Source: a virus | Length of the DNA stretch: 64,000 nt | IMG/VR virus record: IMGVR_UViG_3300037264_004862 | Span: 1-64,000 of that record | Reading direction: 5' to 3' (one strand) | Part shown: positions 13,354 to 56,884 of the stretch, piece by piece | Layout of the letters: each line of letters starts with the position of its first letter | Numbering within the stretch: the stretch's first letter is position 1 | The notes under the pieces: model-generated | Told to the model about the DNA's origin: nothing | Database searches by the model: none | The model's input: only the letters and a program-made list of their open reading frames with translations | Made by a program: the position numbers and the translations under genes

Positions 13354-13429
13354 TGGTGCCTTGGGTGAGAATTGAACTCACAACTCCTTGGTTAAAAGCC
13401 AAGTACTCTACCAATTGAGTTACCAAGGC
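13354..13429 (-). tRNA. tRNA-Lys(UUU)
   Basis: GCCTTGG/CCAAGGC acceptor, CTTGG-CTTTTAA-CCAAG anticodon arm, TTCAATT T loop, encoded CCA. Confidence 0.95.
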
Positions 13430-13430
13430 A

Positions 13431-13516: not shown

Positions 13517-14213
13517 GTGTGTGTTACGCTCTTGGGGGCCACTTACGTTATAGGAAAGCTCGAAGTCATCGTGGGGAGGGGAATCCTATAGAGGCTACCT
13601 GTGTGTTACATCGAAGTCAAACATCTTGTAAGAAGTCTAAATTAAGACTTCAAGTTCAAGATGCGATAAAAGGTGGCAGGCCAGTTCCCTTGGCTTCAAG
13701 GGACACTCTTCTGAGGTCCTTCCTCACCTGCCACCCTCTCCTCCACTCCGGGTTCAGGCTCTTCCCTCCCCGGCCAGCTTTCAAAATATTTCGTGGGTGA
13801 GATATCGGTCACCCACGCCGGGTTCGGGTCATGAGCACCTACCCGGAAGATTTCTGACCACATGTGTGGTACATCAAATTTTACTAAGAAAGTTTCTGTG
13901 AGGGGGCCTGATACTGCGTGATCGAGGTGTAGGTGTCCAGAGTCGGGTTGAAGCAGCCGCTGATTTGTTCGCTGACACGCTTCTTGGCCTTGATGATGGC
14001 CTTGCTCAGGGCCTCATTGGAGTCTTCTGCCTCCACCGATTCAGACACCCGAACCTTGAAAACCAGAGAGACGCTGAAGGATGGCATGTCTTCCCTCCAA
14101 ATATGAAAGCAAGTAGAAAGCGGATGTTGCCGGAAGGATGCCAAGGTGAACGAAGTTCAGGTGTGGTACTGAAATGCCCTCTGAGCCCATCCAAGCGGGT
14201 GAGCTTAAAGGAC

Positions 14214-14235
14214 GGGGGGTCCTTGCGGACCCCCC
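14214..14235 (-). terminator. strong GC hairpin with GCAA tetraloop after the GC-rich gene
   Basis: GGGGGGTCC-GCAA-GGACCCCCC on the minus strand; weak U tract. Confidence 0.5.
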
Positions 14236-14260
14236 ATCAGGAGCATCAGGTGTGTTACGA

Positions 14261-14707
14261 CTACTCCGCCTCGACCTCCTCGGCGACCTCCTCGGCGACT
14301 TCGGCGTCGGCCTCGGGCTTCGCGGCCAGCTGCTTGGCCTTGAAGTCCGCGAGGAGCTTCTTCTGGGCGTCTCGGGTCGCCTTGCGCGCCGCCGACTTGC
14401 AGCCCTCGCAGGTGCTCACCTGGAAGAGATCGCTGGTGAACACCTCGCGGGTCGCCTCGCACCCCTTGTCCTCGGGGTCCGTGCAGGTGATCGTCGCCAC
14501 CTGCTTGTTCTTGATCGCGTCGAAGCGCACGGAGCCCTTGATCACGTGCGGGTACTTCGCCTCGATTTCCGCCGCGCCCATCCGCCGCGAGCGACCCTCG
14601 CTCTTGATCGCGGACTTGAGCTGCTTGACCTGCGCCTCGCTCAGCCCCATCGACTTCGCCACGGAGTCGATGTCCTGCGAGGTCTTCGCGACCTGCGCGC
14701 TGTCCAT
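14261..14707 (-). CDS. basic/acidic protein with possible Zn site and strongly GC3-biased codons
   Basis: GGAGG RBS; CTDPEDKGC...CEGC; Ala/Lys-rich helix and Glu-rich tail. Confidence 0.75.
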   Translation of the reverse strand: MDSAQVAKTSQDIDSVAKSMGLSEAQVKQLKSAIKSEGRSRRMGAAEIEAKYPHVIKGSVRFDAIKNKQVATITCTDPEDKGCEATREVFTSDLFQVSTCEGCKSAARKATRDAQKKLLADFKAKQLAAKPEADAEVAEEVAEEVEAE

Positions 14708-15254
14708 GCCAACCTCCACAAAAAGGGAACACCAAAAACCCGACCGCGACATGCAAGCCGGGACGCACGATCTTTCGCCAAGAGCCACCCTATCCGGGCG
14801 GGACAGGGCGCGGAATCATGGGCGAGAATCCCCGCCGCTCGGTCACCCCCCACGGCCCAAGGCCGCGTGGGTGCGTTGTTGACCTAATCACCCCATCACG
14901 GGCGAACGACGCCACAATCATATGCACACATCTATGCTTGGGGGCGCGGGGGATTATCGCGTATACTATGGGGGGACCCGTAAGGGAGTATGGGGGGAGG
15001 GGGGTCGGATTGCTCCTTCGTACGCGATATATTTCCGCGCCGAATCTTCAGAATGTTGTGGGGGATTAAACTGCTATTACCTTAGTAATCTCAGGAATAG
15101 AAGTCATAATCTCATTCTCGATACCCATCTTCAGCGTGCGCACCAATTTCCACAAAAAAGCCGTGCCGTATTTTGTTATATTGTTTTAGTACCCATTCAT
15201 CTTGACCATGTGATGATTTAGAATTATTCACAAAAATTTTTTAATAAAAATGTA

Positions 15255-15557
15255 TTACTTAATATTATTAAATCTTATGTGATGGAACCAACTTAAATAC
15301 AGTTCAAGTTTATTAAAGAATTTGGGGTCAGCCGCCATTAACTGTCCTGGAGAATAATTTATGCAAGGAGTGGCCCCCATCCTAAGATATACACTATCAT
15401 CCTTAATAATCACTAAACTAAAAGTATCATACCCCTTAATTATACTAAAGATAGCTGGAATGTTATCGTCGTAGCCACATGCATAGGCTTGGTTTAATGA
15501 ATTATCTTTCAACCAATTACTAATAATATTTGGAAGCAACTCACGATAATGAAACAT
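15255..15557 (-). CDS. LIxxWL...DPxFF family protein
   Basis: NIISNWLKD ... MAADPKFFNKLE. Confidence 0.8.
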   Translation of the reverse strand: MFHYRELLPNIISNWLKDNSLNQAYACGYDDNIPAIFSIIKGYDTFSLVIIKDDSVYLRMGATPCINYSPGQLMAADPKFFNKLELYLSWFHHIRFNNIK

Positions 15558-15592
15558 GTACGTTTCATATACTGTAGAAGAGTATATAAATT

Positions 15593-15820
15593 ATGAAGAC
15601 AAAATCTCGATTCGAAATTTTCTCGCGCAGGTCGAACAGAGGGTGGCAACGTCTACTACCGGCGATTCTCCGTAAAACTTGTTGGTATTGGCGACTTGTC
15701 GCCGCTAACGGTGAAATTATAGCTGTGGGGACTGAACCATTCGCATCCAAAGAGAATACAGAACGCGCCATTGAAGTTGTACGCCACCACGTCGCTAAGG
15801 CGGAAGTCATGGTGAACTAA
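15593..15820 (+). CDS. YegP/DUF1508-family protein
   Basis: WYWRLVAANGEIIAVG.E.F.SK....RAIEVVR. Confidence 0.8.
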   Translation: MKTKSRFEIFSRRSNRGWQRLLPAILRKTCWYWRLVAANGEIIAVGTEPFASKENTERAIEVVRHHVAKAEVMVN

Positions 15821-16061
15821 GGAGTGCTTCCAACTTATTGAAGCATTCTGGATCACTGACCTCGAGTTTGTAACATATCGTGCAATCCCCCACGAACCTT
15901 GATACTTCTATTTGGGTATTCTCAGGTCTTGTTAATACAAGCCAAGGCTGAGAAACATTTTTAGGTACCCAAAATGCATAATCCAGAAAGCAGCAGGCCG
16001 TTATTAAAATTCCTCTCTCTTGAAGCCATTGTCTGAGAAGGGTGTCTAGTTCAAGACTCAT
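15807..16061 (-). CDS. LIxxWL...DPxFF family protein
   Basis: TLLRQWLQERG ... VSDPECFNKLE. Confidence 0.8.
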   Translation of the reverse strand: MSLELDTLLRQWLQERGILITACCFLDYAFWVPKNVSQPWLVLTRPENTQIEVSRFVGDCTICYKLEVSDPECFNKLEALLSSP

Positions 16062-16356
16062 TCAATACTCTTTTTAGTTTAGGAAAACATTCTGGATCCC
16101 TACTATCTAAGATGGTACGCGTGACATATGTATAATCTTTATGTCTGGCACAAATACAACAAGGGCAAGATACCATTATCTCTATATCGGGGTTTAAAGA
16201 CCAAGTTCTGATCATTTTAGATTCGTTTTTGTGGACCTTAAACAATTGGTAGTTGGTGGGCGTTTGATCTATAGTAAAGGTATAATCATTTTCTGTGAGC
16301 CAGTCACGCATTAGCTCCCACATCTCAATGGTATCTTTATACTTGTCTGTCTTCAT
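16051..16356 (-). CDS. LIxxWL...DPxFF family protein
   Basis: ELMRDWLTEND ... SRDPECFPKLK. Confidence 0.75.
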   Translation of the reverse strand: MKTDKYKDTIEMWELMRDWLTENDYTFTIDQTPTNYQLFKVHKNESKMIRTWSLNPDIEIMVSCPCCICARHKDYTYVTRTILDSRDPECFPKLKRVLNES

Positions 16357-16505
16357 ATATGTCGCATTTAGTACAGGCTGTCTGGAGATGGAGCGTAGCA
16401 TTATCTAGCTGCTTTATTAGAAGCCCCCCACATCCAAGATGCTCAGGATAATATCTCCGGGCTATCTCACTATCAGGAGCTATATAGGTACCTTTTCCGC
16501 ATTTC

Positions 16506-17078
16506 TTACAGGGCTTGGTAATTTGGCGGGTAATGAAATTGAATGTTAGAGTACGAGTCCACGGGTGCGAACACGACGAAGATTGTTCCTGTGCCCTTGA
16601 TAGGTCCATTTATTTTATATCCGTTAAATAAACAATTATAAAAGTTGATGGAGGGACCACCTTGTGGTGATAGAATCTGTAAACCGCCGTCTGTAGGAGC
16701 ATAATTTATAGGTGGCTGAGGGTCCCTATTTAAATACTGCTCCATCTCTTCGAAGAAGGTGGGGTGCCCTGCCATAATAGTTTTAACGGGTGGTCCAGTG
16801 AAGGTGAGGTCCTGGAGCCCCATGAAATTTGAAATTTCTATTTTAGTTGAAGTAATCTGGACTTTGTTGGTAGTGATTAACATATATGAAATACACTTTG
16901 GGCTATAGCTAGGCTCTACCTGGTATATGGGGTAACCGTCCATCTTGGGGTCATAAGGCTCTACCTGGTATATGGGGTAGCCATCAACGACTGCGATTGT
17001 CTTAAAATTGAAATTTTTCTCTATTAACCACCCTATGACAATGTCCCATAACAGATGGTCGTTATTCCAGTCACTCAT
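16506..17078 (-). CDS. LIxxWL...PxFF family protein with internal repeat and C-terminal extension
   Basis: DIVIGWLIEKN ... AGHPTFFEEME; DGYPIYQVEP occurs twice. Confidence 0.7.
   Translation of the reverse strand: MSDWNNDHLLWDIVIGWLIEKNFNFKTIAVVDGYPIYQVEPYDPKMDGYPIYQVEPSYSPKCISYMLITTNKVQITSTKIEISNFMGLQDLTFTGPPVKTIMAGHPTFFEEMEQYLNRDPQPPINYAPTDGGLQILSPQGGPSINFYNCLFNGYKINGPIKGTGTIFVVFAPVDSYSNIQFHYPPNYQAL
16911..16979. repeat. 24-nt direct repeat, 45-nt period, inside a paralog
   Basis: aggctctacctggtatatggggta at 16911 and 16956. Confidence 0.85.
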
Positions 17079-17386
17079 GATAAATATGCCTTAAGTTGTT
17101 CGAAGATGGTGGGGTCCCAAGCCTGAATTTCAACAATTCCGGGCCGTGGGGGTCCAGGAAGCCCTATCTGTATCTTGTCTTTTAGAATCATCATCCCACG
17201 TTTTTCTACCCCAGCTGACAATGCAATAGGGAAAGAGACTGGGACCACCGCCTTGAGTCCATTAAGTGGACATTGAACATAAAGGAGCACGAAATCTGAG
17301 TAATTTTCAAATTCGTAATTATAGCCATTATCGTCCAACCATAAGTCTATTAAGTCAAATAAATTATATTTCTCGCTACTCAGCAT
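17075..17386 (-). CDS. LIxxWL...DPxFF family protein
   Basis: DLIDLWLDDN ... QAWDPTIFEQLK. Confidence 0.8.
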   Translation of the reverse strand: MLSSEKYNLFDLIDLWLDDNGYNYEFENYSDFVLLYVQCPLNGLKAVVPVSFPIALSAGVEKRGMMILKDKIQIGLPGPPRPGIVEIQAWDPTIFEQLKAYLS

Positions 17387-17606
17387 TTAGACCCTGCTTG
17401 GCGTGCCACACTGCAATAGATGGTTCCCAAGCAACCTCGGCGCATTTTGCATGAGCTGGGGCTACAAACAATTCTATGCCTTGAAGCTTAGGGAATTTAG
17501 TAAAGCGTATTGCCAATAGGCAGCATTCTTCATCTTTTAAAAAGTCTGCTTTACAGATAAGACACGACTTTATGGCTTCGTCATCTTCATATTTAAATGT
17601 TTTCAT
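17376..17606 (-). CDS. small Cys/His Zn-binding protein
   Basis: CLIC ... HAKC. Confidence 0.55.
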   Translation of the reverse strand: MKTFKYEDDEAIKSCLICKADFLKDEECCLLAIRFTKFPKLQGIELFVAPAHAKCAEVAWEPSIAVWHAKQGLNAE

Positions 17607-17683
17607 ATTTTGCGCCTCGGGTCACTAAGGAGCTCTTTACATTCTTTATGGGCGTTTTCGTAGTTCAGTCGTCTAATCAAATA

Positions 17684-18427
17684 TTACTTGATTTCCGTGA
17701 GCGCACGGACGTTCGACGCGTCGGCGTTCGCGGCGTGCAGCGCGTAGAGCCGCGCGCTGCCGGTGACGATCGTCACGCGGTAGTCGCGGCGCGCGTCGTT
17801 GTCCGATTCGCGGAGCAGGTCCAGCATGTATCGCGCGAACGCGTCCGCGAGCGTCGCGCGATAACGCCGCGCGTAGCCGTCCATCGTTTCCTTCGTGTAT
17901 GCGCCGTCGTTGTCGACGTGCCACGAGCAGTTGTCGCCCATCGGACACATCGGATCGCCGCACGACCAGCTGATGCGTGCCGTCGGGTCCAGGCAGAAGC
18001 GCAGGTCGACGTCCCGTCCCGCGTGGACGTTCTCCGCGCGAAGGCGTAGGAGGTACCACCGCGCCTTCTTCTCGTCCAACGGATGCGCGGTGCGCGTCGC
18101 AGGGTTCCAGTAGTCCACCCACGCGTCGTACGGCGCGAGATAGCGGTCGACGAGCGCCTCGCCGAGCAGCGCGCGGGCGTCCACGACGTCCCGGCGGATC
18201 TCCTCGCGGCGCGATAGCGAAGTCGGTGCAAGCTGCGCCGGGTGTAGCGCGTAGGGCGCTGATTGCTTTACTCGCTCGGCTTCCCAATCAATCGCCGCTT
18301 CCTGCGCGGCCTTCGCCTTGCGCGGCTTCACCACGCCGAGGATTAGATACATCATGCCGCCGAGCGTCACGACGACCGCGAGGGTCGTCAATAGCTCCTT
18401 CCACGCGCGTTTTAGGTCGGGAGACAT
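17684..18427 (-). CDS. membrane-anchored hypothetical protein in GC-rich island
   Basis: GAGGAGG RBS; N-terminal TM segment; CGDPMCPMGDNCSWH. Confidence 0.7.
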   Translation of the reverse strand: MSPDLKRAWKELLTTLAVVVTLGGMMYLILGVVKPRKAKAAQEAAIDWEAERVKQSAPYALHPAQLAPTSLSRREEIRRDVVDARALLGEALVDRYLAPYDAWVDYWNPATRTAHPLDEKKARWYLLRLRAENVHAGRDVDLRFCLDPTARISWSCGDPMCPMGDNCSWHVDNDGAYTKETMDGYARRYRATLADAFARYMLDLLRESDNDARRDYRVTIVTGSARLYALHAANADASNVRALTEIK

Positions 18428-18600
18428 GTGTCCTCCTCGTCTAAAAATCCGATCGGCAGTTCGCCGGGCTTACAGGCGAGCCGTGCGCCGCGATAGCAGC
18501 CGAGCGAGAAGCGGTGCGTCTTCATCGCCCAATGGTGCCGGTGCAACCGGTCGATGAACGCGTTCGCGTCGTACAGCTCGATCGGACGGACAGTAAGCAT
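18412..18600 (-). pseudogene. truncated XF1762/Mom-like protein N-terminus
   Basis: LTVRPIELYDANAFIDRLHRHH...HRFSLG matches the family N-terminus but the GVAIVGRP core is missing. Confidence 0.55.
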
Positions 18601-18602
18601 AG

Positions 18603-18673
18603 AGCGGGGCGCCCGAGTTGAACGGACATCTCCCCGATGGAATCAGGGTGCGTTGACGTTACGCCAGCCCCGC
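18603..18673 (-). tRNA. atypical/degenerate tRNA-Gly(UCC), no encoded CCA
   Basis: GCGGGGC/GCCCCGC acceptor + U73, GCGT/ACGC D stem lacking the GG, CCCTG-ATTCCAT-CGGGG, GTCCG-TTCAACT-CGGGC. Confidence 0.65.
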
Positions 18674-18687
18674 TCTACGACTACGAT

Positions 18688-19011
18688 CTATCCTGTCGAC
18701 TCATGCATTTGGACTAGTAATTTTTCAAGTTTGTTAAAAAACTTTGGGTCCTCTACTATTAAAGCTTTCAGTTCTAAAAGATTCCTATCCCAATTTTTAA
18801 TCCCATTATTGTTAATGTAGAGGCGCATCCCCATGTCGCCGTGCTTGGTCCAATAGCGATTTGGGCATGAATAAGTGATATAATGCGTGGGAAAGCGTGC
18901 TTCATTATCATCAATTTGACGATCTATGACAATGAAATGATCACGAAGAATTGGATGTTCACAAATCCAGCCCTCAATCAGATGCGGCAGCTTTATAATT
19001 TCGGTTATCAT
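18688..19011 (-). CDS. LIxxWL...DPxFF family protein
   Basis: HLIEGWICEH ... VEDPKFFNKLE. Confidence 0.8.
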   Translation of the reverse strand: MITEIIKLPHLIEGWICEHPILRDHFIVIDRQIDDNEARFPTHYITYSCPNRYWTKHGDMGMRLYINNNGIKNWDRNLLELKALIVEDPKFFNKLEKLLVQMHESTG

Positions 19012-19261
19012 ATGGAAAATATTTCCCTAAATGTTCAAATAGATTAGGGTCACTTATATTATATGTCTTAGCAGTCATGTCCGTATAAACATCTATATTT
19101 TGAGATACTATGACATAAGTGTTGTTTTCTTCATACCACAAATACAGACCTGGCCCTTTTGGTGGACGGACCCAATGTAATCGACCACTTATACACCAAA
19201 TGTTAGTAAGACTGTATCCGCGCTCCTGTAACCAAAACTGAATGAGTCCTGCTGCAGTCAT
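18974..19261 (-). CDS. LIxxWL...DPxFF family protein
   Basis: GLIQFWLQERG ... ISDPNLFEHL. Confidence 0.8.
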   Translation of the reverse strand: MTAAGLIQFWLQERGYSLTNIWCISGRLHWVRPPKGPGLYLWYEENNTYVIVSQNIDVYTDMTAKTYNISDPNLFEHLGKYFPYDNRNYKAAASD

Positions 19262-19608
19262 GCGGTATTTAAGAATCGTAAAATAAGCTTTTCGAGTTTC
19301 TTGAAGAATTTTGGATCTTCTGCTTTAATTATGTTGTTTCCATAAATAGACCTGATCGGTCCAGGCTGAAGAGCCATAAGATCCCAACGAAAAATCACTC
19401 TTGTCAACTCAATGGTTGCTATCCAGGTTTCTGGATCGTATATGTCATGCGGACGATGTTTCATTCTGATTTGGCCGACATCAGGTGGATAAAATAGGCT
19501 TCTATAATCTACGTTTTCCGTGTCTATGATAGATATGCGATCTCGTAACTTCGGTCGTGCCATCACCCAATCATGAATTAGATGACTTAAGTTCACAGCT
19601 TTTACCAA
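19258..19608 (-). CDS. LIxxWL...DPxFF family protein
   Basis: HLIHDWVMAR ... AEDPKFFKKLE. Confidence 0.8.
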   Translation of the reverse strand: MVKAVNLSHLIHDWVMARPKLRDRISIIDTENVDYRSLFYPPDVGQIRMKHRPHDIYDPETWIATIELTRVIFRWDLMALQPGPIRSIYGNNIIKAEDPKFFKKLEKLILRFLNTA

Positions 19609-19981
19609 ATTCCACCTTATGCATTAAGTACATTATGCGCTTTAGTTTAGTAAAAAATTCTGGATCACTCGATGGTATCTCTGCGGTCTTTTTAAGACCA
19701 ATCGAATTACCGGCATGCAGTTTAATGCGGTCATCAAGTATGAATGCTATTGGACGTCGACATAACTCTCCAGTAAAAATATATCGTTGAAACGCGGAGG
19801 TGCTGTGAACTGGACAGCAAATCATATTAAGTGAAGAAACTACAGTTGCTTGGTCGGTTAGTTTATTGATAGCATTATCGATTACAACAGAAAAATGCTC
19901 TACCAACAAAACATCAGCTATTAACCAATCATATATTAAATAATCTAAAGTAACCACAAACTTATTTCCCGTCGTTTTCAT
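19571..19981 (-). CDS. LIxxWL...DPxFF family protein
   Basis: YLIYDWLIAD ... SSDPEFFTKLK. Confidence 0.8.
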   Translation of the reverse strand: MKTTGNKFVVTLDYLIYDWLIADVLLVEHFSVVIDNAINKLTDQATVVSSLNMICCPVHSTSAFQRYIFTGELCRRPIAFILDDRIKLHAGNSIGLKKTAEIPSSDPEFFTKLKRIMYLMHKVEFGKSCELKSSNS

Positions 19982-20354
19982 CCCATTTACCTAATATGTT
20001 GAAATAAGTTGAACTGGATGGCGGAGACGACAATATCGTTAAAAGGCGCTCAAAAAAGTCTGGTTCGCAACAACTAAGAACTACAACATTAACTCCTATG
20101 GCCCATGTGCTATCTTCAAACTTATGGGCTGGTAAACAGTTCAATTTTTGTATACCTTCTTTATTAAAGACTCCAGTAGTCAAAATAATTATACTATTAA
20201 TATCATTGTTGTCTTCAGTAATATTAATAGTATATTTTGGATCTATATTAGGTAAATCAATATTAATGTTTTTTTTGTTAAAAGTAAATGTATATCCCCC
20301 GTTAGTAAGCCAATTAACAATAAGTTCAAGTAAATTAGGTACTTCAGGCTCCAT
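19962..20354 (-). CDS. LIxxWL...DPxFF family protein
   Basis: ELIVNWLTNG ... CEPDFFERL. Confidence 0.8.
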   Translation of the reverse strand: MEPEVPNLLELIVNWLTNGGYTFTFNKKNINIDLPNIDPKYTINITEDNNDINSIIILTTGVFNKEGIQKLNCLPAHKFEDSTWAIGVNVVVLSCCEPDFFERLLTILSSPPSSSTYFNILGKWDENDGK

Positions 20355-20589
20355 CTATAAACCTCTTCATTTTTTCAAATAGCTTCGGATCAGTCCAACT
20401 AAAAGACTCTATTACACCAGGCTTAGTCATCCACACAAAAACATTATCAACGGTAACGTCAATGCGTATCGAATATTTTCCAACAAACATGATTAAATAA
20501 TCATTTCTTATTTGTTGTATTAAATACGAAGTTTTATAGGTTTCTTGAATCCATGCGCGTATGATTTCTATTTCTTCGGATGTGTCCAT
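20344..20589 (-). CDS. LIxxWL...DPxFF family protein
   Basis: EIIRAWIQET ... WTDPKLFEKM. Confidence 0.8.
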   Translation of the reverse strand: MDTSEEIEIIRAWIQETYKTSYLIQQIRNDYLIMFVGKYSIRIDVTVDNVFVWMTKPGVIESFSWTDPKLFEKMKRFIDGA

Positions 20590-20945
20590 TTAGGTCTACA
20601 ATATTTATTATAATGATGATGGATTTCATATAATAGGCGTCTTAAATCGTCGAAAAAAGTAGGACTAGCCGCATTGATAGAGATCCACCGGTCGGAAAAT
20701 GAAGTGATCATCTCATCACCTATATCACTTTCTACGCTATCAATGCTTATCCAACAAGCAAATTGATCATATGAATGATAATTATTATCATGATAACATG
20801 AAAGATTTATAGAAGTAACAACACTATTAATAGAACGTTTAATTATGAAATGATTATTTAAGAATAAATCTTCTTTTAGCCAATTCTCTATGATATCAAC
20901 TAGCTTCGGATATTGGTCTATGGGCGTTTGTAGGTCAGAATTCAT
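20568..20945 (-). CDS. LIxxWL...PxFF family protein
   Basis: DIIENWLKED ... AASPTFFDDL. Confidence 0.8.
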   Translation of the reverse strand: MNSDLQTPIDQYPKLVDIIENWLKEDLFLNNHFIIKRSINSVVTSINLSCYHDNNYHSYDQFACWISIDSVESDIGDEMITSFSDRWISINAASPTFFDDLRRLLYEIHHHYNKYCRPKWTHPKK

Positions 20946-21017
20946 ATAATCGATATCGAATCTGGAGGCGTTGAAAACCCAATTTCACTAGTGTAACATC
21001 GATCATAACTTCATATT

Positions 21018-21146
21018 TCATAAGATCGATATACATAATTTGGTCATATTTCCATATCCCACTTTGATTAGATTTGGATATAAAAAATCATTGAAATCTT
21101 TTTGATTTCGTAGCCACTCGTTCACTATGTTAGCAAGGTCATTCAA
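21018..21146 (-). pseudogene. truncated member of the LIxxWL family
   Basis: LNDLANIVNEWLRNQ... stops after 42 codons with no DPxFF helix. Confidence 0.5.
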
Positions 21147-21384
21147 TACGCAATCCAACTATAAGTCTTTTCTTCAAAAGACTAAAAAATTTTGGGTTAC
21201 TAGCATACAAAGTACCTTTACTGGTAGTTATATAATTATCATTTACTACAAGCAATAACATTTTATGAGGATTGTTAACAAGACTTACTATTATGATACA
21301 CAGATTAGTTTTAGATAATTTAGCAATGCATTTAAATTCTAGTTGGTCAGCTAGCCATTGTTTAACTAGATCAAATAAGCTCAT
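21139..21384 (-). CDS. LIxxWL...PxFF family protein
   Basis: DLVKQWLADQ ... YASNPKFFSLL. Confidence 0.8.
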   Translation of the reverse strand: MSLFDLVKQWLADQLEFKCIAKLSKTNLCIIIVSLVNNPHKMLLLVVNDNYITTSKGTLYASNPKFFSLLKKRLIVGLRIE

Positions 21385-21617
21385 AAATCTTTCGCAAGTT
21401 TGGTATTTAAATACTTTCAGGCATCACTTTGTGTGTGATTTGATTTGTTTTATTATGACTTGTATCAAAAAGTTAGTTTTACGTTTTTTTGGTTCCCACT
21501 CTGCTGGATTTATAGTCACATGTGGATCAAAAGCCGTCAAAAAGAAATAAAACATACCTACAAATAGGACGAAAAATATTGCCAATCCTTTTATAGGGAG
21601 CCAAAATTTTTTATAGG

Positions 21618-21890
21618 TCATTTGTGTCGTTTAGATACTTTATCTATAAATGCCTTGAATTTTTCAAAGAATTCAGGGTCACCTATCGGAAGTGGCTTTG
21701 ATAGCTCTTTATAATCTGTAGTAGGTATGATTTTATAGTTGACTATGGCAGCTATTAATACTTCATTTTCGCTGTGGATTATATAGGCTCTTATAGCCCA
21801 ATGTGGGTAAGCAGGATCTGGAATACTCCAAACAAAATAAGTTGGGCAGTGCTCGGCTAGCCAATTATCAATAATAAGCTCAAGATTCAT
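21618..21890 (-). CDS. LIxxWL...DPxFF family protein
   Basis: LIIDNWLAEH ... IGDPEFFEKF. Confidence 0.8.
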   Translation of the reverse strand: MNLELIIDNWLAEHCPTYFVWSIPDPAYPHWAIRAYIIHSENEVLIAAIVNYKIIPTTDYKELSKPLPIGDPEFFEKFKAFIDKVSKRHK

Positions 21891-22188
21891 AGTATGTCAT
21901 TGTCCCAAACTCGTCTCGATCTAACACATAGACACAAAGCTTGAGGAATTTTTCCAGTTCATCAAAGAAATTGGGTCTCATGACTGATAACGGTCTAATA
22001 TAATCTATATCTGGCAATAAAATTGGAGAGACGCCATCTTTTTCAATATAAGCTATAAACGCTCTTGTATCTTTATGGTATATGATGTATGGTCTATGCT
22101 GGCCTCTATTATGTAATTGGAGTACTGAGAAGCCACTAATATCTTCTTCTTTCAACCATTCAGATATGAGTTCATCTAACGTAATCAA
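21880..22188 (-). CDS. LIxxWL...PxFF family protein
   Basis: ELISEWLKEE ... MRPNFFDELE. Confidence 0.8.
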   Translation of the reverse strand: MITLDELISEWLKEEDISGFSVLQLHNRGQHRPYIIYHKDTRAFIAYIEKDGVSPILLPDIDYIRPLSVMRPNFFDELEKFLKLCVYVLDRDEFGTMTYYES

Positions 22189-22460
22189 TGGTGGTACTCT
22201 TTATAATGGTTATCTAGGATATGCCAGAGTTTATCTAGAAATAAAGGGTCACCTGCCTGAACTTCTATGATGGGTCTTGTAAATGCTGCGATATGATCTG
22301 TGAAAATGGCGACAATATAGTCGTCGCCTTCAATCATCGGCCAACTGTGTTCACGACAAAAAACATAATCACAAAGTCCCCTATTTGGATATCGATAAAC
22401 GCCCCAGCCAATTGCTGGCTTTGACCGTAACCATGTCTCGATTAGGTCAGTAAGGGACAT
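22185..22460 (-). CDS. LIxxWL...DPxFF family protein
   Basis: DLIETWLRSK ... AGDPLFLDKL. Confidence 0.8.
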   Translation of the reverse strand: MSLTDLIETWLRSKPAIGWGVYRYPNRGLCDYVFCREHSWPMIEGDDYIVAIFTDHIAAFTRPIIEVQAGDPLFLDKLWHILDNHYKEYHH

Positions 22461-22652
22461 CTATAGTATGTTCACTTATAAATAGTTTCACCACACTTAG
22501 GGCATGTTGGATTCCAAAATTCACGAGTAGGCCATTTCTTAGATAGGAGAAGCTGCCACTCTAAACCGCAACACTCCCATATCCGTAATCTAAATATCCA
22601 TTTCTTGACTTCTGGGTGTTGCCATCGTTCTGTTCTAATTGTCATAATTGTC

Positions 22653-23009
22653 TTAGATATTTCTTAGAACTACTTTTGCCTCAGTGGTGCGATTTTCTAT
22701 ATGCCTAATTTGCTTATTAATTTCATCTTCAAGCTTTTCAAAAAATTCGGGATCATGTGCATTGATAGTATGCCTTACTTTATGGATATCTGAGTAACTG
22801 ACCTCGAATTCTGAAACATCTATTATCTCATAAAATAACCATTCAGGAAAATAGGGTCCATTTCCAGCACTCAAAAGACGTGTGTGATGGTATCTTATAG
22901 TGCAAGATACCGATTGGTCTCCGTCTCCCCAGTTGGTGAACCTGTGGATAGTGAGTTTGTCCATTTTCTTGGTTTCAAACCATTTCTCTATAAGGTCAGC
23001 TATAGTCAT
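22653..23009 (-). CDS. LIxxWL...DPxFF family protein
   Basis: DLIEKWFETK ... AHDPEFFEKLE. Confidence 0.8.
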   Translation of the reverse strand: MTIADLIEKWFETKKMDKLTIHRFTNWGDGDQSVSCTIRYHHTRLLSAGNGPYFPEWLFYEIIDVSEFEVSYSDIHKVRHTINAHDPEFFEKLEDEINKQIRHIENRTTEAKVVLRNI

Positions 23010-23078
23010 TTATAAATCTATCTATGCAAATAGTTCACGATGTAGTTTAAATACGATCAACAAATAATCTTAGACTAA

Positions 23079-23366
23079 TCAAATTTCTATGATGAAATAA
23101 TGAAGTCGACGATTAGCGCATTGTTCACACAAGATAGTCAAAAGTTTATCAAAGAAGTCTGGATCTGCTATGTTAAGTACAACCTTATTGAATTCACCAT
23201 GTTTGGGGGACCAATAATAAGCCGTATCATCGACGATCCTAATCCGATTTATACCAGAACTGTGGTAGTACTGGCACTCAATCATACTGCTGAGATCATT
23301 AACCTTATAGTGCGAACTCAACTTATTTTCTTTGAGCCATGCTTTAATGAGATCGTTTGTTTCCAT
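23079..23366 (-). CDS. LIxxWL...DPxFF family protein
   Basis: DLIKAWLKEN ... IADPDFFDKL. Confidence 0.8.
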   Translation of the reverse strand: METNDLIKAWLKENKLSSHYKVNDLSSMIECQYYHSSGINRIRIVDDTAYYWSPKHGEFNKVVLNIADPDFFDKLLTILCEQCANRRLHYFIIEI

Positions 23367-23680
23367 TATTTAATTGGTGTTTTACACCATTGTGTTTTAT
23401 TATGTGCTTTTATAATTGTTTCTCTCAAACATTCAAAAAAATTAGGTTGACTCGCTATTAATGTTACTATTTTAAGTGATCCTACGGATGGGCCGGTATA
23501 AAGATCTATGCCGTTAGAATAAATTTCGCCATAAATGAGCCCATTTAACGATACAAGATATGGGATGGGCCGTCGGCATAGGCCCATAATACAACAATTG
23601 CTCATAATAAAGTGCTTTGAGAGTTCGCTGTCGTCTTCGATCCACTTGCCGATCAATTCTTGTAGATTCAACATACTCAT
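23366..23680 (-). CDS. LIxxWL...PxFF family protein
   Basis: ELIGKWIEDD ... ASQPNFFECL. Confidence 0.8.
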   Translation of the reverse strand: MSMLNLQELIGKWIEDDSELSKHFIMSNCCIMGLCRRPIPYLVSLNGLIYGEIYSNGIDLYTGPSVGSLKIVTLIASQPNFFECLRETIIKAHNKTQWCKTPIK

Positions 23681-23726
23681 TTGTATATCAAATTTCGATA
23701 GATGTAATGTCTTATCTAAGATTCTA

Positions 23727-24047
23727 TTAAGTTTTTTGTGGCGTCTCTGGCGTTAGCTTCTCTTGAGCTCTTTTAGTTGATTGTCTTGTAAATTTGCGTT
23801 TTAAGGCTATGTCGTCTTTGTGAGTTTCGTTATGTCGACGTAATTTTTCTTTGGCTTCTTTAGACATTGGATGATGAATGCCTAATACTTTTCTAATCAG
23901 TTTTTCGGCTTGTCCATCATTTCCAGCTTTACGGGCGTCGATAACTTGTTGCCAGCCATCATTAGATAAGCAATCTTTTGAATGCCAATGGGCTTTTAAG
24001 TCAGCTATTTTATGGTAACCTGACTTTTTACAACTTCCGCAAACCAT
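23727..24047 (-). CDS. basic protein with C2H2-like Zn finger
   Basis: CGSC...LKAHWHSKDC; GGAG RBS. Confidence 0.6.
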   Translation of the reverse strand: MVCGSCKKSGYHKIADLKAHWHSKDCLSNDGWQQVIDARKAGNDGQAEKLIRKVLGIHHPMSKEAKEKLRRHNETHKDDIALKRKFTRQSTKRAQEKLTPETPQKT

Positions 24048-24089
24048 GACCTATTTCTCCATCAGGCTATAAACACTATTAATTAAATA

Positions 24090-24350
24090 CTAAAAAATAT
24101 TCTCTACACCTTCAATTGCTATTTCAAGTTTATTAAAGAATTCAGGGTCAGCCACTTCAAGTTCTAGTCCAGGATCTACAACTACCCAAGTATCACCAAT
24201 AGCTCCGAATTTATAATCATAACCAGTACTACGTGTAATAATAGTTAAATCATGACAATTTGCAGCAACATTTTTGGATATGAATATTCTGCTATGCTTG
24301 GTGCTACTACCAAGCCATGCAGCAATAGCACGAGGTAAATCTAATTCCAT
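24090..24350 (-). CDS. LIxxWL...DPxFF family protein
   Basis: RAIAAWLGSS ... VADPEFFNKLE. Confidence 0.8.
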   Translation of the reverse strand: MELDLPRAIAAWLGSSTKHSRIFISKNVAANCHDLTIITRSTGYDYKFGAIGDTWVVVDPGLELEVADPEFFNKLEIAIEGVENIF

Positions 24351-24356
24351 ATTATA

Positions 24357-24641
24357 TTATGGCCATATTTGATGACGCGCCTTTTTAAACTTGTCTTGGT
24401 ACCAAGCGGCATTCGAAAAATACTTGCGCAATAAATATTGATCTAATTTCGCAAAAAATTCTGGATCTGATGCACTTATGCCTGCAACGCTATCGTCTGC
24501 GATAGTTACATAAAGGTTGCTACCGATATAGATATGTGACATGGCTCGTCCTGGGCGTATGGAATTATCGACAACTCTAAGTCTTATCCATCCTGCAGTA
24601 GGAAGCCAATCACTAATTAATTGTGATAACGACACTGTCAT
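24357..24641 (-). CDS. LIxxWL...DPxFF family protein
   Basis: QLISDWLPTA ... ASDPEFFAKLD. Confidence 0.8.
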   Translation of the reverse strand: MTVSLSQLISDWLPTAGWIRLRVVDNSIRPGRAMSHIYIGSNLYVTIADDSVAGISASDPEFFAKLDQYLLRKYFSNAAWYQDKFKKARHQIWP

Positions 24642-25395
24642 GGGACTGAGCTCCAATTAGATCTAAAATCAGCTTTTTATATTCGTCTTTAGTCGGAAGA
24701 TTCTCATCAAGCTTGACTTGTCTACGTACAACTTTAACAACTTTATTTTCTCGCGGATTGAAACCGTCTTTAACATAGTTCTCCCAATATAGACCAGTAC
24801 CATGTTTCTGCCAAGCAGGAACCATATTAAAATCGACATTGCGTGCAGAGAGCACATGGAGCTTGTCGTCTACAGTTTTATTTTTAAGCATGGAAGATGC
24901 CTGACTAGAAGAATAGCCATGCGATCTGAGTGTCCAATATGCCCAACCGTTTAGAGCGCAACGCTCTGCGTCTGTCTGTCTCCATCGGAAGTAATCTACA
25001 ACCTTTGGTTCGGTAGTACCAACCCAAATACGGCTATCGAAATGGCCTCTTAAGTTTGCTTGTTCGCTAAAAGCAACGCTTGCAATGCTTGCAGATAACG
25101 AAACCAGTTTTTCGAGCTCACGATCAAAAATTTTGAAGTTCTTATCTAACAGTATGGAAATTTCATCGCTTTCAGTAAATGCATAAATGCCATTGAATTC
25201 AACAAGTAGCATTTGAGCTACATGGACCATTATTCTATGGAACTCTATATCAAATGGTTTTGCAAAATGCTTTTCAGTAAGACCAGAAAAACCTCTGCCA
25301 TCTACACGAATAACAGGATATAAATCTGATCCGACTTTAATAGAATGAAAAACTTCGAATTTCCGCATTTCTTCTTCGAATTTGGTGTTGTTCAT
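24613..25395 (-). CDS. thg1: tRNA(His) guanylyltransferase Thg1-like 3'-5' polymerase
   Basis: IRVDGRGFS, KPFD, ESDEISI, FDSR, YFRWRQ.DA.R motifs. Confidence 0.92.
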   Translation of the reverse strand: MNNTKFEEEMRKFEVFHSIKVGSDLYPVIRVDGRGFSGLTEKHFAKPFDIEFHRIMVHVAQMLLVEFNGIYAFTESDEISILLDKNFKIFDRELEKLVSLSASIASVAFSEQANLRGHFDSRIWVGTTEPKVVDYFRWRQTDAERCALNGWAYWTLRSHGYSSSQASSMLKNKTVDDKLHVLSARNVDFNMVPAWQKHGTGLYWENYVKDGFNPRENKVVKVVRRQVKLDENLPTKDEYKKLILDLIGAQSHDSVVITIN

Positions 25396-25428
25396 ATAGC
25401 CTATATAGACCATGTTAAAATACTGTAG

Positions 25429-25785
25429 ATGTATCAATCATTTTATGAGCAAGGGGAAAATCTTACAGATGCCAAACTTATCGCAAATACCATAGACCAC
25501 GCATTAATGGCTCAGAAAATACAACTAGAAATGACTGTTCATTTCATGAACACAGGCTGTTTTATTACAATATTATTAGGAAATGGCCACGGTGCGTCAT
25601 GGAACATTAATTGGGCATTAAATAGCCCATATCAATTAGACACAGGTGTTGGGTTTTTGTCTTTGGCTGATCCAAACTTCGAGGCCAAACTGGCCGATCA
25701 TATCACTAAGATTGCGATGGTCATGACCCGGTTTTGTGGGTGCTCGGAGTGTGATCGGAGGGTGGTATTTGATTTTGGATATTAA
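25429..25785 (+). CDS. divergent member of the DPxF paralog family, opposite strand
   Basis: LSLADPNFEAKLADHI. Confidence 0.55.
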   Translation: MYQSFYEQGENLTDAKLIANTIDHALMAQKIQLEMTVHFMNTGCFITILLGNGHGASWNINWALNSPYQLDTGVGFLSLADPNFEAKLADHITKIAMVMTRFCGCSECDRRVVFDFGY

Positions 25786-25895
25786 ACATCTCAGCAAGCT
25801 GCATACGGATTGTCATAAGATCAAAAGGCGTTCTAGCTGGGTCCATAGCATACGTAAGTAGCTCTAAAGACACAGACGCTAATTCTTTATAATGC

Positions 25896-26540
25896 TCACA
25901 GTTTGGACACTTTGTCGATTCCATGTTGTTGACATTGTCTTTTTGATCCACAAAAGCACTCCTTTTTAAGATATTGCTCTAATGTAATTGGGTCAGAAAT
26001 AATTTTTAATAACTCATTATATTTATCTTGTGCTTGAAAAAGGCGCTCTTCTAAATTAGCCATTCTCATGATTCCATTAGAAGTCATATCACGTGATAAA
26101 ATTTCTTTCGAAAAGGAGATAAGTCCACTTAAGCTGCCTTCTTTATATGGACAAACTGCCATATGGTCTTCACATCCTTCGACAAGGTGTTTCAAAGCTT
26201 TGTTTACTAATGCTGACGCTGCATCGTTAGGTACAATTATTAACTGATTGTTTGTGCTCCATGGGAAAAATTGAATTGGGCTATAAGTGGTGCCACGAAT
26301 TTGACGTACAAATTGTAAGGCCACATAAACTATGAACCCCAATACTAATAAGGGCCAAACTAGAGCCGATAATTGGGTGCCCAACATAAGAAAATCGCCC
26401 CAAATTGTTGAGCACCAACATTCCATAAATGATTTGTGGTCATGGTGCGCCTTAATGTGTGCAGAGAGCTTTACGTTACAATATAAGCCTAACATTAGTC
26501 CTATTATGATATAAACAACAGACCAAAAAAGAATAATCAT
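25896..26540 (-). CDS. membrane protein
   Basis: Two hydrophobic segments incl. LVWPLLVL. Confidence 0.6.
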   Translation of the reverse strand: MIILFWSVVYIIIGLMLGLYCNVKLSAHIKAHHDHKSFMECWCSTIWGDFLMLGTQLSALVWPLLVLGFIVYVALQFVRQIRGTTYSPIQFFPWSTNNQLIIVPNDAASALVNKALKHLVEGCEDHMAVCPYKEGSLSGLISFSKEILSRDMTSNGIMRMANLEERLFQAQDKYNELLKIISDPITLEQYLKKECFCGSKRQCQQHGIDKVSKL

Positions 26541-26607
26541 TCAATACCCGATAAATACCATTTTATGGTTTTCATAAGGCCATAAGAACAGTAGTTGCTT
26601 TAAATTT

Positions 26608-55613: not shown

Positions 55614-56120
55614 CTACTGTTGGGAAGATTGGATTCCAAGATAACGACGATGCCGAATCAAAGCACGCCCGTGATAGTTCTTTAGATGATGAGAAAGTTT
55701 CGTCTCTCGATTATCCGAAGGACGAAGATGAATTAGAGAAAGAAATCTCTGTGCGTGCTCGTAAAGAATTCGGATACCTCGCCGTAGCCGGAGCCAAACC
55801 CCATCTACAGTTATAGGAATTGTATCAGGATATAAGTCCCAATATCTAAGTTCAGTGTGGTCCAAATGTTCGCCTAACTTTTCCAGCATATCCTGATTAT
55901 ATATATTTAAACTGTTGGAGTACCAACCAGATGGGGTTGGTATCCAGCAAACGACATCATTAGATTTTGTATAAATATGGACCACTGATTCATATGTGGA
56001 CTTGAATTTCCTACCAATGCGACGAATATAGCGGATATCATTTGTAGTTGACTCAACAACTTCATAATTAAAACCACTTTCAAGGAGCCAATCCGCTAAG
56101 AGTTGGTGTAGTTTAATCAT
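55614..56120 (-). CDS. LIxxWL family protein (outlier)
   Basis: QLLADWLLESG ... NIYNQDMLEKL. Confidence 0.55.
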   Translation of the reverse strand: MIKLHQLLADWLLESGFNYEVVESTTNDIRYIRRIGRKFKSTYESVVHIYTKSNDVVCWIPTPSGWYSNSLNIYNQDMLEKLGEHLDHTELRYWDLYPDTIPITVDGVWLRLRRGIRILYEHAQRFLSLIHLRPSDNRETKLSHHLKNYHGRALIRHRRYLGIQSSQQ

Positions 56121-56884
56121 TAAATAGTACCAGTACCGCCGCATTTAACGCACTGTTGATTATTGATCTTGGTGATGCCACACCCTTTACAGAGCGGACA
56201 TTCACGAGCACTATAACCGCCTGCCATCAAGGCACGCTCACATGCACTTTTAGATACTATACTGGCTTGAACAGCCTGCTTAAGGCGTGCCTGTAGAGCT
56301 TTATCGCCACCTGTGTTTACGATAGTGACATCAGTCGTGCCAGTATTGCCAACCACTTTCTTAGGGATAACCATTGGCTTACCATCACGACCCATGATGA
56401 CTTGTTCTTCATGTTCAGTAACAATAGGAGCTTCAATGGTACCTTTTTTAGTTTGCATAGATTGGGTTGTATCATATGACTGATGAGATCCAAGGTCCAT
56501 ATCTTGACCAGTAGATGTTTTAGCGACAGTAGGCACAACAATTGGCATGATCTTCTTGGCCCTCACTGTTGGTGCAAAAAGCTTTGGACTATCTTGGTCG
56601 ACTGACGGTGCCGGAGAGGGCGATGGCGTTGGTATTGCCTTAGCTGCTTCAATAAGACCACCTTTACCCATAGGAACCAAAGTATAGCCTAATTCTTTAG
56701 CTTGCTTCTCAAATTCTTCAATCATTAAATTCTTTTTTTCGACTAATTCCCGCACTTTCTTAGGGGAAGCGTCATCTTCGTGTTCATTACAAATCCAAAC
56801 AGTTGAGATACCTTTGGAAGTGGTGACTTGCATTGAAATAGTAAGATCTTCTACCTTACTACAGAATATACACTGATTCGCCAT
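56120..56884 (-). CDS. hypothetical protein with terminal Zn fingers
   Basis: CIFC...CNEH; DnaJ-like CPLCKGCG...CVKCGGTG; AGGAG RBS. Confidence 0.7.
   Translation of the reverse strand: MANQCIFCSKVEDLTISMQVTTSKGISTVWICNEHEDDASPKKVRELVEKKNLMIEEFEKQAKELGYTLVPMGKGGLIEAAKAIPTPSPSPAPSVDQDSPKLFAPTVRAKKIMPIVVPTVAKTSTGQDMDLGSHQSYDTTQSMQTKKGTIEAPIVTEHEEQVIMGRDGKPMVIPKKVVGNTGTTDVTIVNTGGDKALQARLKQAVQASIVSKSACERALMAGGYSARECPLCKGCGITKINNQQCVKCGGTGTI

Follow-up and report, generated by a model that had tools for sequence, protein, structure and literature searches.

A tandem array of 21 deeply diverged miniprotein paralogues in a metagenomic phage contig, tentatively read as a set of host-target binders

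Poxviruses and herpesviruses offer well-known examples of multigene families in which a single fold is directed at many host targets. The poxvirus immune-modulator families combine one stable fold with little sequence identity, act on many host targets, and are clustered in variable regions of the genome. To our knowledge, such families are barely described in phages. Other close systems include small alpha-beta sandwich proteins, namely frataxin/CyaY, YdhG-like (DUF1801), and YjbR (DUF419) proteins, and the immunity loci of polymorphic toxins (SUKH, Tsi6, TriTu-like). Tandem arrangement of divergent paralogues, characteristic of these immunity loci, is also present in the locus described here, with 21 adjacent copies.

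The locus belongs to the IMG/VR virus record IMGVR_UViG_3300037264_004862, a phage genome contig of 122,824 bp (herein referred to as G000); the window, i.e., the whole stretch of DNA analyzed, comprises its positions 1–64,000. A tandem array of one miniprotein family occupies positions 15255–24656 on the minus strand (Table 1). In agreement with an earlier sequence-only reading, the array contains 21 intact ORFs (81–136 aa, and one of 190 aa) and one truncated N-terminal copy within 9.4 kb. Many of the genes overlap or abut, as that reading also stated; overlaps of 1–44 nt were found at 16 of the 28 junctions between position 15255 and the Thg1-like gene. The family takes up about 8% of the 122.8-kb contig.

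An HMM trained only on 148 proteins from other metagenomes was scored against all 764 ORFs of at least 40 aa in G000. This external-only HMM matched the 21 array ORFs with E-values from 2e-18 to 4.5e-7; the best match in the reversed ORF set, used as a control, had an E-value of 0.19. The fixed ends proposed earlier, [LI][LI]xxW[LI] and [AS]xDPxFFxKL, were confirmed. The Trp of the N-terminal helix and the Pro of the C-terminal DP are invariant in all 21 array members, and a relaxed regular expression for both end motifs found 18 ORFs in the whole genome, every one within 15306–24620. The other three array members each deviate by one residue (LMRDWL, RPNFF, and AIAAWL). The longest array gene contains an internal 45-nt tandem duplication (repeat D4). 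For the remnant copy, no C-terminal motif was found downstream in a three-frame reading, and runs X2 and X4 carry an extra A behind position 21081.

Six members had also been proposed outside the array. With the external-only HMM and hhalign, the ORFs at 30339 and 55614 were retained and the ORF at 267 was marginal, whereas those at 3205, 25429, and 749 were unsupported (E-values 0.076–0.91; hhalign 35, 43, and 23%, respectively). A profile built from ORF 25429 and two orthologues aligned with the family over 24 columns only, at the ADPNF motif, with a probability of 34%.

Table 1. Array members and neighboring features in the window (E, E-value with the external-only HMM)
Feature	Position	Strand	Evidence and remarks
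Family member, 100 aa	15255..15557	-	E 1.9e-14; hhalign 98.8%
Family member, 84 aa	15807..16061	-	E 3.4e-10
Family member, 116 aa by longest ORF (86-aa form from internal Met = P0055)	16051..16401	-	E 3.4e-11
Family member, 190 aa, C-terminal extension of roughly 60 aa	16506..17078	-	E 7.3e-12; orthologues 59-64% identity
Family member, 103 aa	17075..17386	-	E 3.2e-12; collinear counterpart in G002
tRNA-Gly(UCC) inside array	18602..18673	-	ARAGORN; unreported by Rfam at gathering score
Family member, 107 aa	18688..19011	-	E 1.1e-13; first AlphaFold2 model, pLDDT 76.8
Family member, 95 aa	18974..19261	-	E 6.5e-9
Family member, 116 aa, TTG start by longest ORF (101-aa form = P0020)	19258..19608	-	E 4.4e-13
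Family member, 136 aa	19571..19981	-	E 8.4e-11
Family member, 130 aa, most divergent in array	19962..20354	-	E 4.5e-7; hhalign 98.1%, 42 C-terminal columns only
Family member, 81 aa	20344..20589	-	E 9.5e-12; 80% orthologue P0003
Family member, 125 aa	20568..20945	-	E 5.1e-15
Remnant copy, 46 aa, N-terminal helix only	21018..21158	-	E 0.01
Family member, 81 aa	21139..21384	-	E 4.2e-13
Family member, 90 aa	21618..21890	-	E 2e-18; second AlphaFold2 model, pLDDT 92.8, pTM 0.82
Family member, 102 aa	21880..22188	-	E 6.6e-16
Family member, 91 aa	22185..22460	-	E 1e-14; 54% counterpart in G002
Family member, 118 aa	22653..23009	-	E 3.1e-14
Family member, 95 aa	23079..23366	-	E 1.2e-14
Family member, 104 aa	23366..23680	-	E 1.6e-11
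Non-family ORF inside array, 106 aa, CxxC then basic tail	23727..24047	-	Same place in G001, G002
Family member, 86 aa	24090..24350	-	E 2.2e-10
Family member, 99 aa, 44-nt overlap with Thg1-like gene	24357..24656	-	E 1.8e-12
Thg1-like tRNA-His guanylyltransferase gene	24613..25437	-	phrog_4717, E 6.1e-38
Dispersed family member, 112 aa	30339..30677	-	E 1.1e-8; hhalign 96.5% over 85 columns, absent from profile
Dispersed family member, 176 aa, C-terminal extension	55614..56144	-	E 5.3e-6; hhalign 95.6%
Possible divergent member, 109 aa, marginal	267..596	-	E 3.3e-4; hhalign 27%

No shared family was found for 10 members in Pfam, PHROGs, NCBIfam, and PADLOC; Pfam gave no match to these members even at E ≤ 1. 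Among 150 members searched against Pfam and PHROGs, no common family was found, the sole exception being weak matches to Tsi6 in 2 of the 150, and no catalytic or ligand-binding family was matched. None of the members clearly resembles described anti-defence or immunity proteins in sequence. When PDB sequences were searched with a profile, the only match was to 3q63, over 15 residues (E-value 0.0051); Foldseek found nothing at E ≤ 0.001 in PDB and BFVD, and ESM Atlas yielded only unnamed viral clusters (0.75–0.77). A search restricted to named entries gave DUF1815 (0.79) and T4_Y03C (0.77), which fell below the lead level of 0.9, had no support from Pfam scans, and were rejected. Weak evidence against fused forms comes from 7,996 longer candidates, none of which was one. 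Neither megablast with the array nor tblastn with P0016 matched any of 50,697 phage records. Literature searches found no description of the family, and its motif strings occur in no paper of the library searched. Judged by these comparisons of sequence, the family appears to be previously undescribed and has no name in any of the family libraries searched.

The two AlphaFold2 models, for the proteins encoded at 18688..19011 and 21618..21890, agree in a helix–strands–helix layout. The predicted scaffold has two layers: an antiparallel sheet of five strands, and the N- and C-terminal helices, which both pack on the same side of it. The earlier interpretation, a conserved alpha-beta(n)-alpha scaffold displaying diverse surfaces, is partly supported. 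For the suggested likeness to CyaY or YdhG, no match in sequence was found. Pfam scans of 10 and 150 members gave no match to YdhG-like (DUF1801) or YjbR (DUF419) proteins; Frataxin_Cyay was not matched in 150 members at E ≤ 0.01, and no frataxin was listed in the PDB profile search at E ≤ 10. Frataxin/CyaY proteins place a layer of two helices on an antiparallel sheet of five to seven strands, a layout that the predicted scaffold may share, and bind iron through a conserved acidic ridge formed by helix 1 and strand 1. Such a ridge is absent from the family: an acidic tendency is seen only at position 5 (D 38%, E 20%) and position 13 (E 36%), the strand 1 columns are unconserved, and the pI is above 7.5 in 6 of the 23 members. 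The range of pI, from 4.4 to 9.6 across the 23 members, also rules out DNA mimicry as a family trait. Homodimer prediction for the protein encoded at 21618–21890 scored 0.25 against a mark of 0.42, which is evidence neither way.

Conserved columns are nearly all hydrophobic and are spaced i, i+3/4, i+7 in the helices and i, i+2 in the strands. The claim that the middles share almost nothing was overstated, since the strands share a conserved skeleton of Y36 (78%), I49 (70%), D52 (64%), V54 (54%), and L67 (44% L, 40% I); columns 48, 50, 53, and 55 hold under 0.8 bits each. Residue spacing, from which buried and exposed positions were assigned, suggests that the conserved residues make up a hydrophobic core and a helix cap and that the outward strand positions vary. 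In the fixed ends, L3, [LI]6, [IV]7, W10, and L11 would form one helix face of the scaffold and F74, F75, L78, and [LI]82 the other. D71-P72 would be the cap starting the last helix, alternate strand residues would face inward, and paralogues would be free to differ in their outward-facing strand residues, in their loops, and in overall charge.

The same columns bear on an unlikely alternative, in which the members are adaptors: the two-helix layer, or Y36, D52, D71, and K77, would dock on one phage or host machine, and the variable face would bring substrates. Conserved polar residues are few in the otherwise hydrophobic set (D71, 82%; K77, 76%; and Y36 and D52 above) and could mark a common site; the non-family ORF kept inside the arrays of three phages (counterparts of 44% in G001 and 54% in G002; no Pfam family found) could be the partner, and SUKH-type immunity folds are described as reused as adaptors in PMC3113570. 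However, in the model and alignment the last helix begins precisely at D71-P72, and D52 falls in a hairpin turn, so structural roles explain their conservation; the conserved hydrophobic residues are spaced like a buried face, and no partner was identified.

When the whole library of public metagenomes was searched, the family was represented by 219 clusters, and all representatives checked were metagenomic. Two IMG/VR phage contigs that are syntenic with G000 carry 31 (G001) and 25 (G002) copies, compared with 23 in G000; in both, the array occupies the same locus and adjoins a Thg1-like tRNA-repair gene. An unrelated-looking contig of 31.9 kb (G003) has nine copies. Viral contigs searched with single members or with the Thg1-like protein yielded no array, metagenome-contig scans with 21618–21890 and with P0155 confirmed nothing, and neither a second DNA pattern nor re-ordering the alignment brought anything further.

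Seven collinear family pairs between G000 and G002 are 32–54% identical, versus a median of 61.6% for 37 other genes, and at E ≤ 1e-6 a counterpart was found for only 7 of the 25 copies in G002. Thus, compared with other genes of the genome, the family diverges faster and turns over more, a behavior expected of genes that interact with the host. At 32–54% identity between orthologues, synonymous sites are saturated. Within the genome, no two paralogues exceed 36% identity over at least 55 aa (in alignment A1, 16–35% between the first sequence and the other 20), yet nine members have external relatives at 57–81% identity; the paralogues are therefore old and separately kept.

The only DNA repeat family within 15000–25000 is a stretch of ~30 nt encoding the C-terminal DPxFFxKL, present in 8 copies with 68–100% identity to the reference copy (one pair, 94%). 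A diversity-generating retroelement was rejected, as no template and variable repeats were found in this region. Recombination at the motif-coding stretch might make and lose copies of little function, so that the paralogues would be largely dispensable. This repeat, the decayed remnant, and the variation in copy number among the phages favor such an explanation, but 21 of the 22 array copies are intact, and the contrast between paralogue and orthologue identities indicates long purifying selection on each; we consider it quite improbable.

The G003 copies follow the genes for terminase, portal, and prohead protease and share their strand. T4 internal proteins are directed to the capsid by a cleavable N-terminal sequence, occur in virions, and are injected with the DNA. 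By analogy, the conserved N-terminal segment could be a capsid-targeting signal of packaged proteins injected with the DNA, in keeping with fixed N-termini, variable bodies, and this gene order. That is very improbable: in both models the N-terminal helix is integral to the fold (pLDDT 92–97 for residues 1–20 of the second), not a detachable leader, and in G000–G002 the array is grouped with genes for replication and accessory functions, the tail genes being about 75 kb away.

The Thg1-like gene is the conserved upstream neighbor of the array, adjoining it in all three syntenic phages; besides the tRNA-Gly gene inside the array, tRNA-Lys and tRNA-Met genes lie 1.7 kb beyond it. In PMC7824862, Thg1 of large phages is interpreted as repairing tRNA 5'-ends against RNase effectors, which counts in favor of the binder reading given below. 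The members could instead have a role linked to RNA or tRNA, working with the Thg1-like enzyme and the tRNAs of the phage; they might shield particular tRNAs or block particular tRNA nucleases. Adjacency by itself is weak, however; G003 keeps its copies beside a head module with no Thg1 gene detected, and a pI ranging from acid to basic gives no uniform nucleic-acid-binding charge, which leaves this explanation improbable.

Neither sigma-70-like promoter sites (33 vs 36.3 expected) nor terminator-like sites (12 vs 9.1 expected) are in excess in the array, and the Bacteroidota-type TAnnTTTG motif is not enriched (82 vs 112 in shuffles). A Shine-Dalgarno-like motif was found upstream of 1 of 23 family genes, versus 16 of 68 ORFs of 200 aa or more. 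Metatranscriptome contigs span the array and its flanks evenly; carried-over DNA is possible, and such even coverage does not demonstrate transcription. The overlapping junctions, without an excess of promoter-like or terminator-like sites, have been cited for co-production, which would proceed from one leftward transcription unit continuing from the replication genes.

The reading that we favor, tentatively and at somewhat less than an even chance, is that the members are binders of host or defence targets built on a common scaffold. The array would be a set of small, soluble, stand-alone proteins on one two-layer scaffold, each paralogue binding its own target through the open sheet face and the loops. 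Host proteins, phage-defence effectors among them, would be the likeliest targets. In the genome of this uncultured sediment myovirus, the locus falls in an accessory region, next to genes for a tRNA-repair enzyme and for tRNAs. Paralogues that are deeply diverged and conserved one by one are as compatible with stable, separate functions as with an arms race. A narrower version is possible but doubtful: in this clade of large sediment myoviruses, a heritable repertoire of 20–30 single-domain binders would each inhibit a different target, either a defence effector or a takeover target. Recombination at the motif-coding stretch would renew the repertoire, which would lie in a counter-defence island beside tRNA repair. 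If it holds, the family would represent both a new protein family and a new general phage counter-defence strategy, as well as a natural supply of compact scaffolds for binders, and the array would be a catalogue of phage counter-measures and of the host systems met. The scaffold, modelled with confidence at 90 residues and with one sheet face left free, would then also be of interest for binder engineering. If the members dock on one partner instead, they would make up an adaptor system new to phages.

Among known systems, SUKH immunity arrays and the herpesvirus US22 family, as described in PMC3113570, likewise consist of adjacent, deeply diverged paralogues of one small fold. According to the same paper, the number and type of SUKH genes vary between genomes, with alternatives under diversity selection, as in the phage array. 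It mentions bacterial SUKH arrays of up to six copies, whereas here 21–31 copies are phage-borne and appear, by sequence, to belong to a different fold family. The array could accordingly be pictured as a multi-immunity locus in which each member blocks a single toxin, for instance an effector from an abortive-infection, toxin-antitoxin, or polymorphic toxin system; this is distinctly unlikely, and no toxin domain was found among the selected neighbors scanned. The poxvirus families follow the same logic as the phage array, but they belong to eukaryotic viruses and have unrelated folds, so the likeness is by analogy only. The zinc ribbon of Bacillus phage G, with about 35 copies, is likewise a large expansion of a small domain in a large phage genome (PMC7824862). 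That domain is unrelated and is described there for one phage, whereas the present family is expanded in at least three related phages at one locus and also occurs in a fourth contig.

The virus record (122,824 bp, the window being its first 64 kb) is a myovirus fragment; a terminal repeat was looked for in it and none was found. The tandem array of miniproteins proposed in a sequence-only reading was borne out: it comprises 21 intact ORFs, 81-136 aa long apart from one of 190 aa, and lies downstream of the replication module on the same strand. The reported overlaps between genes were also recovered (16 of 28 junctions, by 1-44 nt), as was the truncated copy. The Trp of the N-terminal motif [LI][LI]xxW[LI] and the Pro of the C-terminal motif DPxFFxKL are present without exception (21 of 21 members). 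With the sequence heading the alignment, the other 20 members share 16-35% identity. A relaxed regular expression for both motifs, run on the whole genome, matched 18 ORFs, every one within the array. Neither promoter-like sites (33 vs. 36.3 expected) nor terminator-like sites (12 vs. 9.1 expected) are enriched in the array. Seven non-member features are interspersed among the family members, from the DUF1508/YegP-domain ORF to the CxxC/basic ORF in the table.

Features of the array, of the elements interspersed in it and of its genomic surroundings
Feature	Position	Strand or direction	Remarks
Family array	15255-24656	minus	
Family remnant	21018-21158		46 aa, N-terminal helix alone retained
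DUF1508/YegP-domain ORF	15593-15820	plus (opposite strand)	Pfam E 3.2e-13; 40% counterpart in contig G002 (4712-4945)
Cys-rich ORF	17376-17606		
GC-rich insert	17684-18600		66.7% GC
tRNA-Gly	18602-18673		
Small membrane-like ORF	21424-21621		
Zinc-ribbon ORF	22472-22645		
CxxC/basic ORF	23727-24047		
Replication module (DnaE-like polymerase, DnaB-like helicase, UvsX-like recombinase, SSB)	38-64 kb	leftward	
Tail sheath and baseplate genes	99.7-118.9 kb of genome		

Sampled words of the array were found in one DNA run, which carries a sediment metagenome label and may be the source run. A second study, likewise labeled, contributed four metatranscriptome libraries in which these words also occur. 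Contigs from these libraries match at ≥99% identity; since they span the region, the assembly is independently confirmed, also across the two edges of the GC-rich insert and at the junction between the array and its upstream neighbor, a tRNA-His guanylyltransferase-like (Thg1-like) gene. In one such run, X2, contig coverage extends over the whole of 12001-32000 at similar depth (30 of 30 bins) and does not separate RNA from carried-over DNA. A Shine-Dalgarno-like motif was found upstream of 1 of 23 family genes, compared with 16 of 68 ORFs of at least 200 aa and 6% of random positions; the family genes may be translated by coupling or through another initiation mode.

Several further features were observed in and around the array. 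The GC-rich insert (66.7% and 60.8% GC vs. 28-42% in family genes) directly adjoins the tRNA-Gly gene and carries a 62-aa ORF and a 247-aa ORF, the latter with no match in Pfam or PHROG. Because X2 contigs span both of its edges, the insert is not an artifact of a single assembly; positions 17740-17870 are not bridged by these contigs. The remnant shows a homopolymer-length polymorphism, with one extra A behind 21081 in contigs of X2 and of a further run, X4, and the C-terminal family motif is not restored downstream in either reading frame. Member 16506-17078 contains a 45-nt tandem duplication at 16911-16985 (30 nt at 93% identity), in which the peptide DGYPIYQVEP is repeated. DNA conservation between G002 and the window peaks in a segment at 13882-14148 (91.4% over 292 aligned columns, elsewhere at most 80%) that adjoins tRNA-Lys and tRNA-Met. 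This segment has no match in Rfam and is a candidate structured RNA; X2 word depth is raised in the bins over 13335-14668 (300.8 and 247.2 vs. 92-180 in other bins), and contig ends and loose ends lie at 13882 and 14104-14107. Positions 1-15000 have a GC content of 0.48-0.54, vs. 0.32-0.42 from 20 kb onward, and are packed with small minus-strand ORFs of unassigned function, including the marginal family member 267-596. Outside the window, a homologue of PurZ-type adenylosuccinate synthetase (90043-91188; phrog_1211, E 8.9e-47) hints that 2-aminoadenine may take the place of adenine in the DNA of this phage.

Searching 1.84 billion cluster representatives with a profile of the 21 array members yielded 219 proteins at E ≤ 0.001. 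The window itself accounts for 8 of the 150 matches listed, and 1 more is a partial match in a 1,652-aa protein; the remaining listed matches are 77-222 aa long and contain both motifs. An HMM built only from 148 proteins outside the genome and run on 764 ORFs recovered each of the 21 ORFs in the array (E 2e-18 to 4.5e-7), the best match in a reversed-sequence control having an E of 0.19. Of six outlying members suggested by the sequence-only reading, this HMM upheld two (30339-30677, E 1.1e-8; 55614-56144, E 5.3e-6), left 267-596 marginal (E 3.3e-4) and did not support the ORFs starting at 3205, 25429, and 749 (E 0.076-0.91); the remnant scored E 0.01. When 341 ORFs of 60-220 aa were compared by hhalign with a 150-row profile, 23 scored above 95%, followed after a gap by 25429 (43%), 3205 (35%), 267 (27%), and 749 (23%). 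The profile has the 21 array ORFs among its rows, so this comparison is an independent test for 30339 and 55614 only. A three-orthologue profile of 25429 aligned with the family over a 24-column ADPNF stretch only, at a probability of 34%. Judged by both sets of scores, the genome holds 23 firm members, 1 marginal member, and 1 remnant.

No consistent match at E ≤ 1 was found for 10 members in Pfam, PHROG, NCBIfam, and PADLOC, and no single Pfam or PHROG family matches more than two of 150 members. PDB sequences gave nothing except one 15-residue match, and 50,697 deposited phage genomes gave no match to the family. All 10 clusters looked up come from metagenomes (JGI, ENA, Logan), where they are either annotated as "hypothetical protein" or left without a name. 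As to the CyaY/YdhG-like scaffold considered possible at first, frataxin/CyaY, YdhG-like, and YjbR proteins are the nearest candidate folds; by sequence, no membership in these families was found.

AlphaFold2 gave a pLDDT of 76.8 for member 18688-19011 with a 21-row alignment, and a pLDDT of 92.8 and pTM of 0.82 for member 21618-21890 with 150 rows. The latter model comprises H3-14, E18-22, E33-39, E44-50, E53-56, a short bridge at 67-68, and H74-89. When column statistics were mapped onto it, the conserved positions of helix 1 (L3, [LI]6, [IV]7, W10, L11) and of the last helix (F74, F75, L78, [LI]82) showed a spacing that suggests one buried face in each. D71-P72 directly precedes the last helix, the position expected of a capping box. 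In the strands, Y36, I49, V54, and L67 are conserved (47 and 56 weakly hydrophobic), alternating with columns 48, 50, 53, and 55, each below 0.8 bits; D52 lies at the hairpin turn. By this helix spacing, strand alternation, and D71-P72 placement, the fixed ends are most readily explained as the hydrophobic core of the predicted fold together with its cap. The variable parts are the sheet face whose residue spacing points outward, the loops (24-35 and 57-66 vary also in length), and charge, pI spanning 4.4-9.6. The only conserved residues with no obvious structural reason are K77 (76%) and Y36; that the members are adaptors docking on one shared partner appears unlikely.

At E ≤ 0.001, the family was found in three other IMG/VR contigs: G001 (39,296 bp; 31 copies, the array reaching the contig end), G002 (43,339 bp; 25 copies), and G003 (31,889 bp; 9 copies). 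These phages may be very large, since the CheckV completeness of their contigs is 9-12%. Synteny with the window is seen in G001 and G002 (30 and 37 non-family genes matched, median identity 46.9 and 61.6%), and in both the array begins directly after the Thg1-like gene; the G002 array ends at a homologue of the window's 14.2-14.8 kb gene. Two G002 family matches (11625-11900 and 5226-5474) are each flagged with one internal TAG, which may merely reflect matches overrunning gene ends. A counterpart of the CxxC/basic ORF (106 aa, N-terminal CxxC and basic tail) occupies the same relative place, after the first members, in G001 (44%) and G002 (54%); this ORF has no family match and might regulate the array or act as its partner. 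G003 has no gene in common with the window at E ≤ 1e-6, and its copies are located downstream of the terminase, portal, and prohead protease genes; a role of the members as packaged internal proteins is nevertheless considered highly improbable.

Seven member pairs between the window and G002 exceed 45 bits (24357, 24090, 23366, 23079, 22185, 21618, and 17075) and are strictly collinear at 32-54% identity, compared with a median of 63.6% for 12 other small genes (≤150 aa). None of the remaining copies is matched at E ≤ 1e-6, and G001 has only three counterparts at this threshold (27-30% identity). Divergence is thus faster and turnover greater in the members than in neighboring genes, mostly at the array end distant from the Thg1-like gene. 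The sole DNA repeat in the array, a ~30-nt stretch coding for the C-terminal motif (8 copies, one pair at 94%), is a possible substrate for unequal recombination. Members within the genome are at most 36% identical to one another over ≥55 aa; nine of them nevertheless have relatives elsewhere at 57-81%: 21618 (81%), 20344 (80%), 21880 (79%), 21139 (72%), 20568 (70%), 16506 (64%), 22185 (60%), 22653 (60%), and 23079 (57%). The paralogues are thus ancient and individually maintained, without recent duplications; beside this maintenance, the view that the copies are largely dispensable is very doubtful.

We tentatively favor, at somewhat short of an even chance, an array of putative stand-alone binders on one scaffold, made together and each directed against a different host or defense target. 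Member proteins would be produced together from the array, and the open sheet face and loops of each would engage its own target. The setting would be an accessory region also holding tRNA repair and tRNA genes. In PMC7824862, Thg1 of large phages is interpreted as mending tRNA 5' ends after damage by RNase effectors; a tRNA-linked role of the members themselves is improbable.

Neither the motif strings nor a description of the family was found in searchable main texts. Within this literature, neither the family nor its size nor its conserved locus across a phage clade appears to have been described before; viral multigene families are already known as a kind. Two genomic parallels to the putative binder array are nearest. 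One is the case of divergent SUKH immunity genes arrayed in tandem, with their viral expansions (PMC3113570); that the members are immunity-like toxin neutralizers, a reading that overlaps with the binder one, is rather unlikely. The other is the zinc-ribbon expansion of Bacillus phage G, with ~35 copies (PMC7824862).
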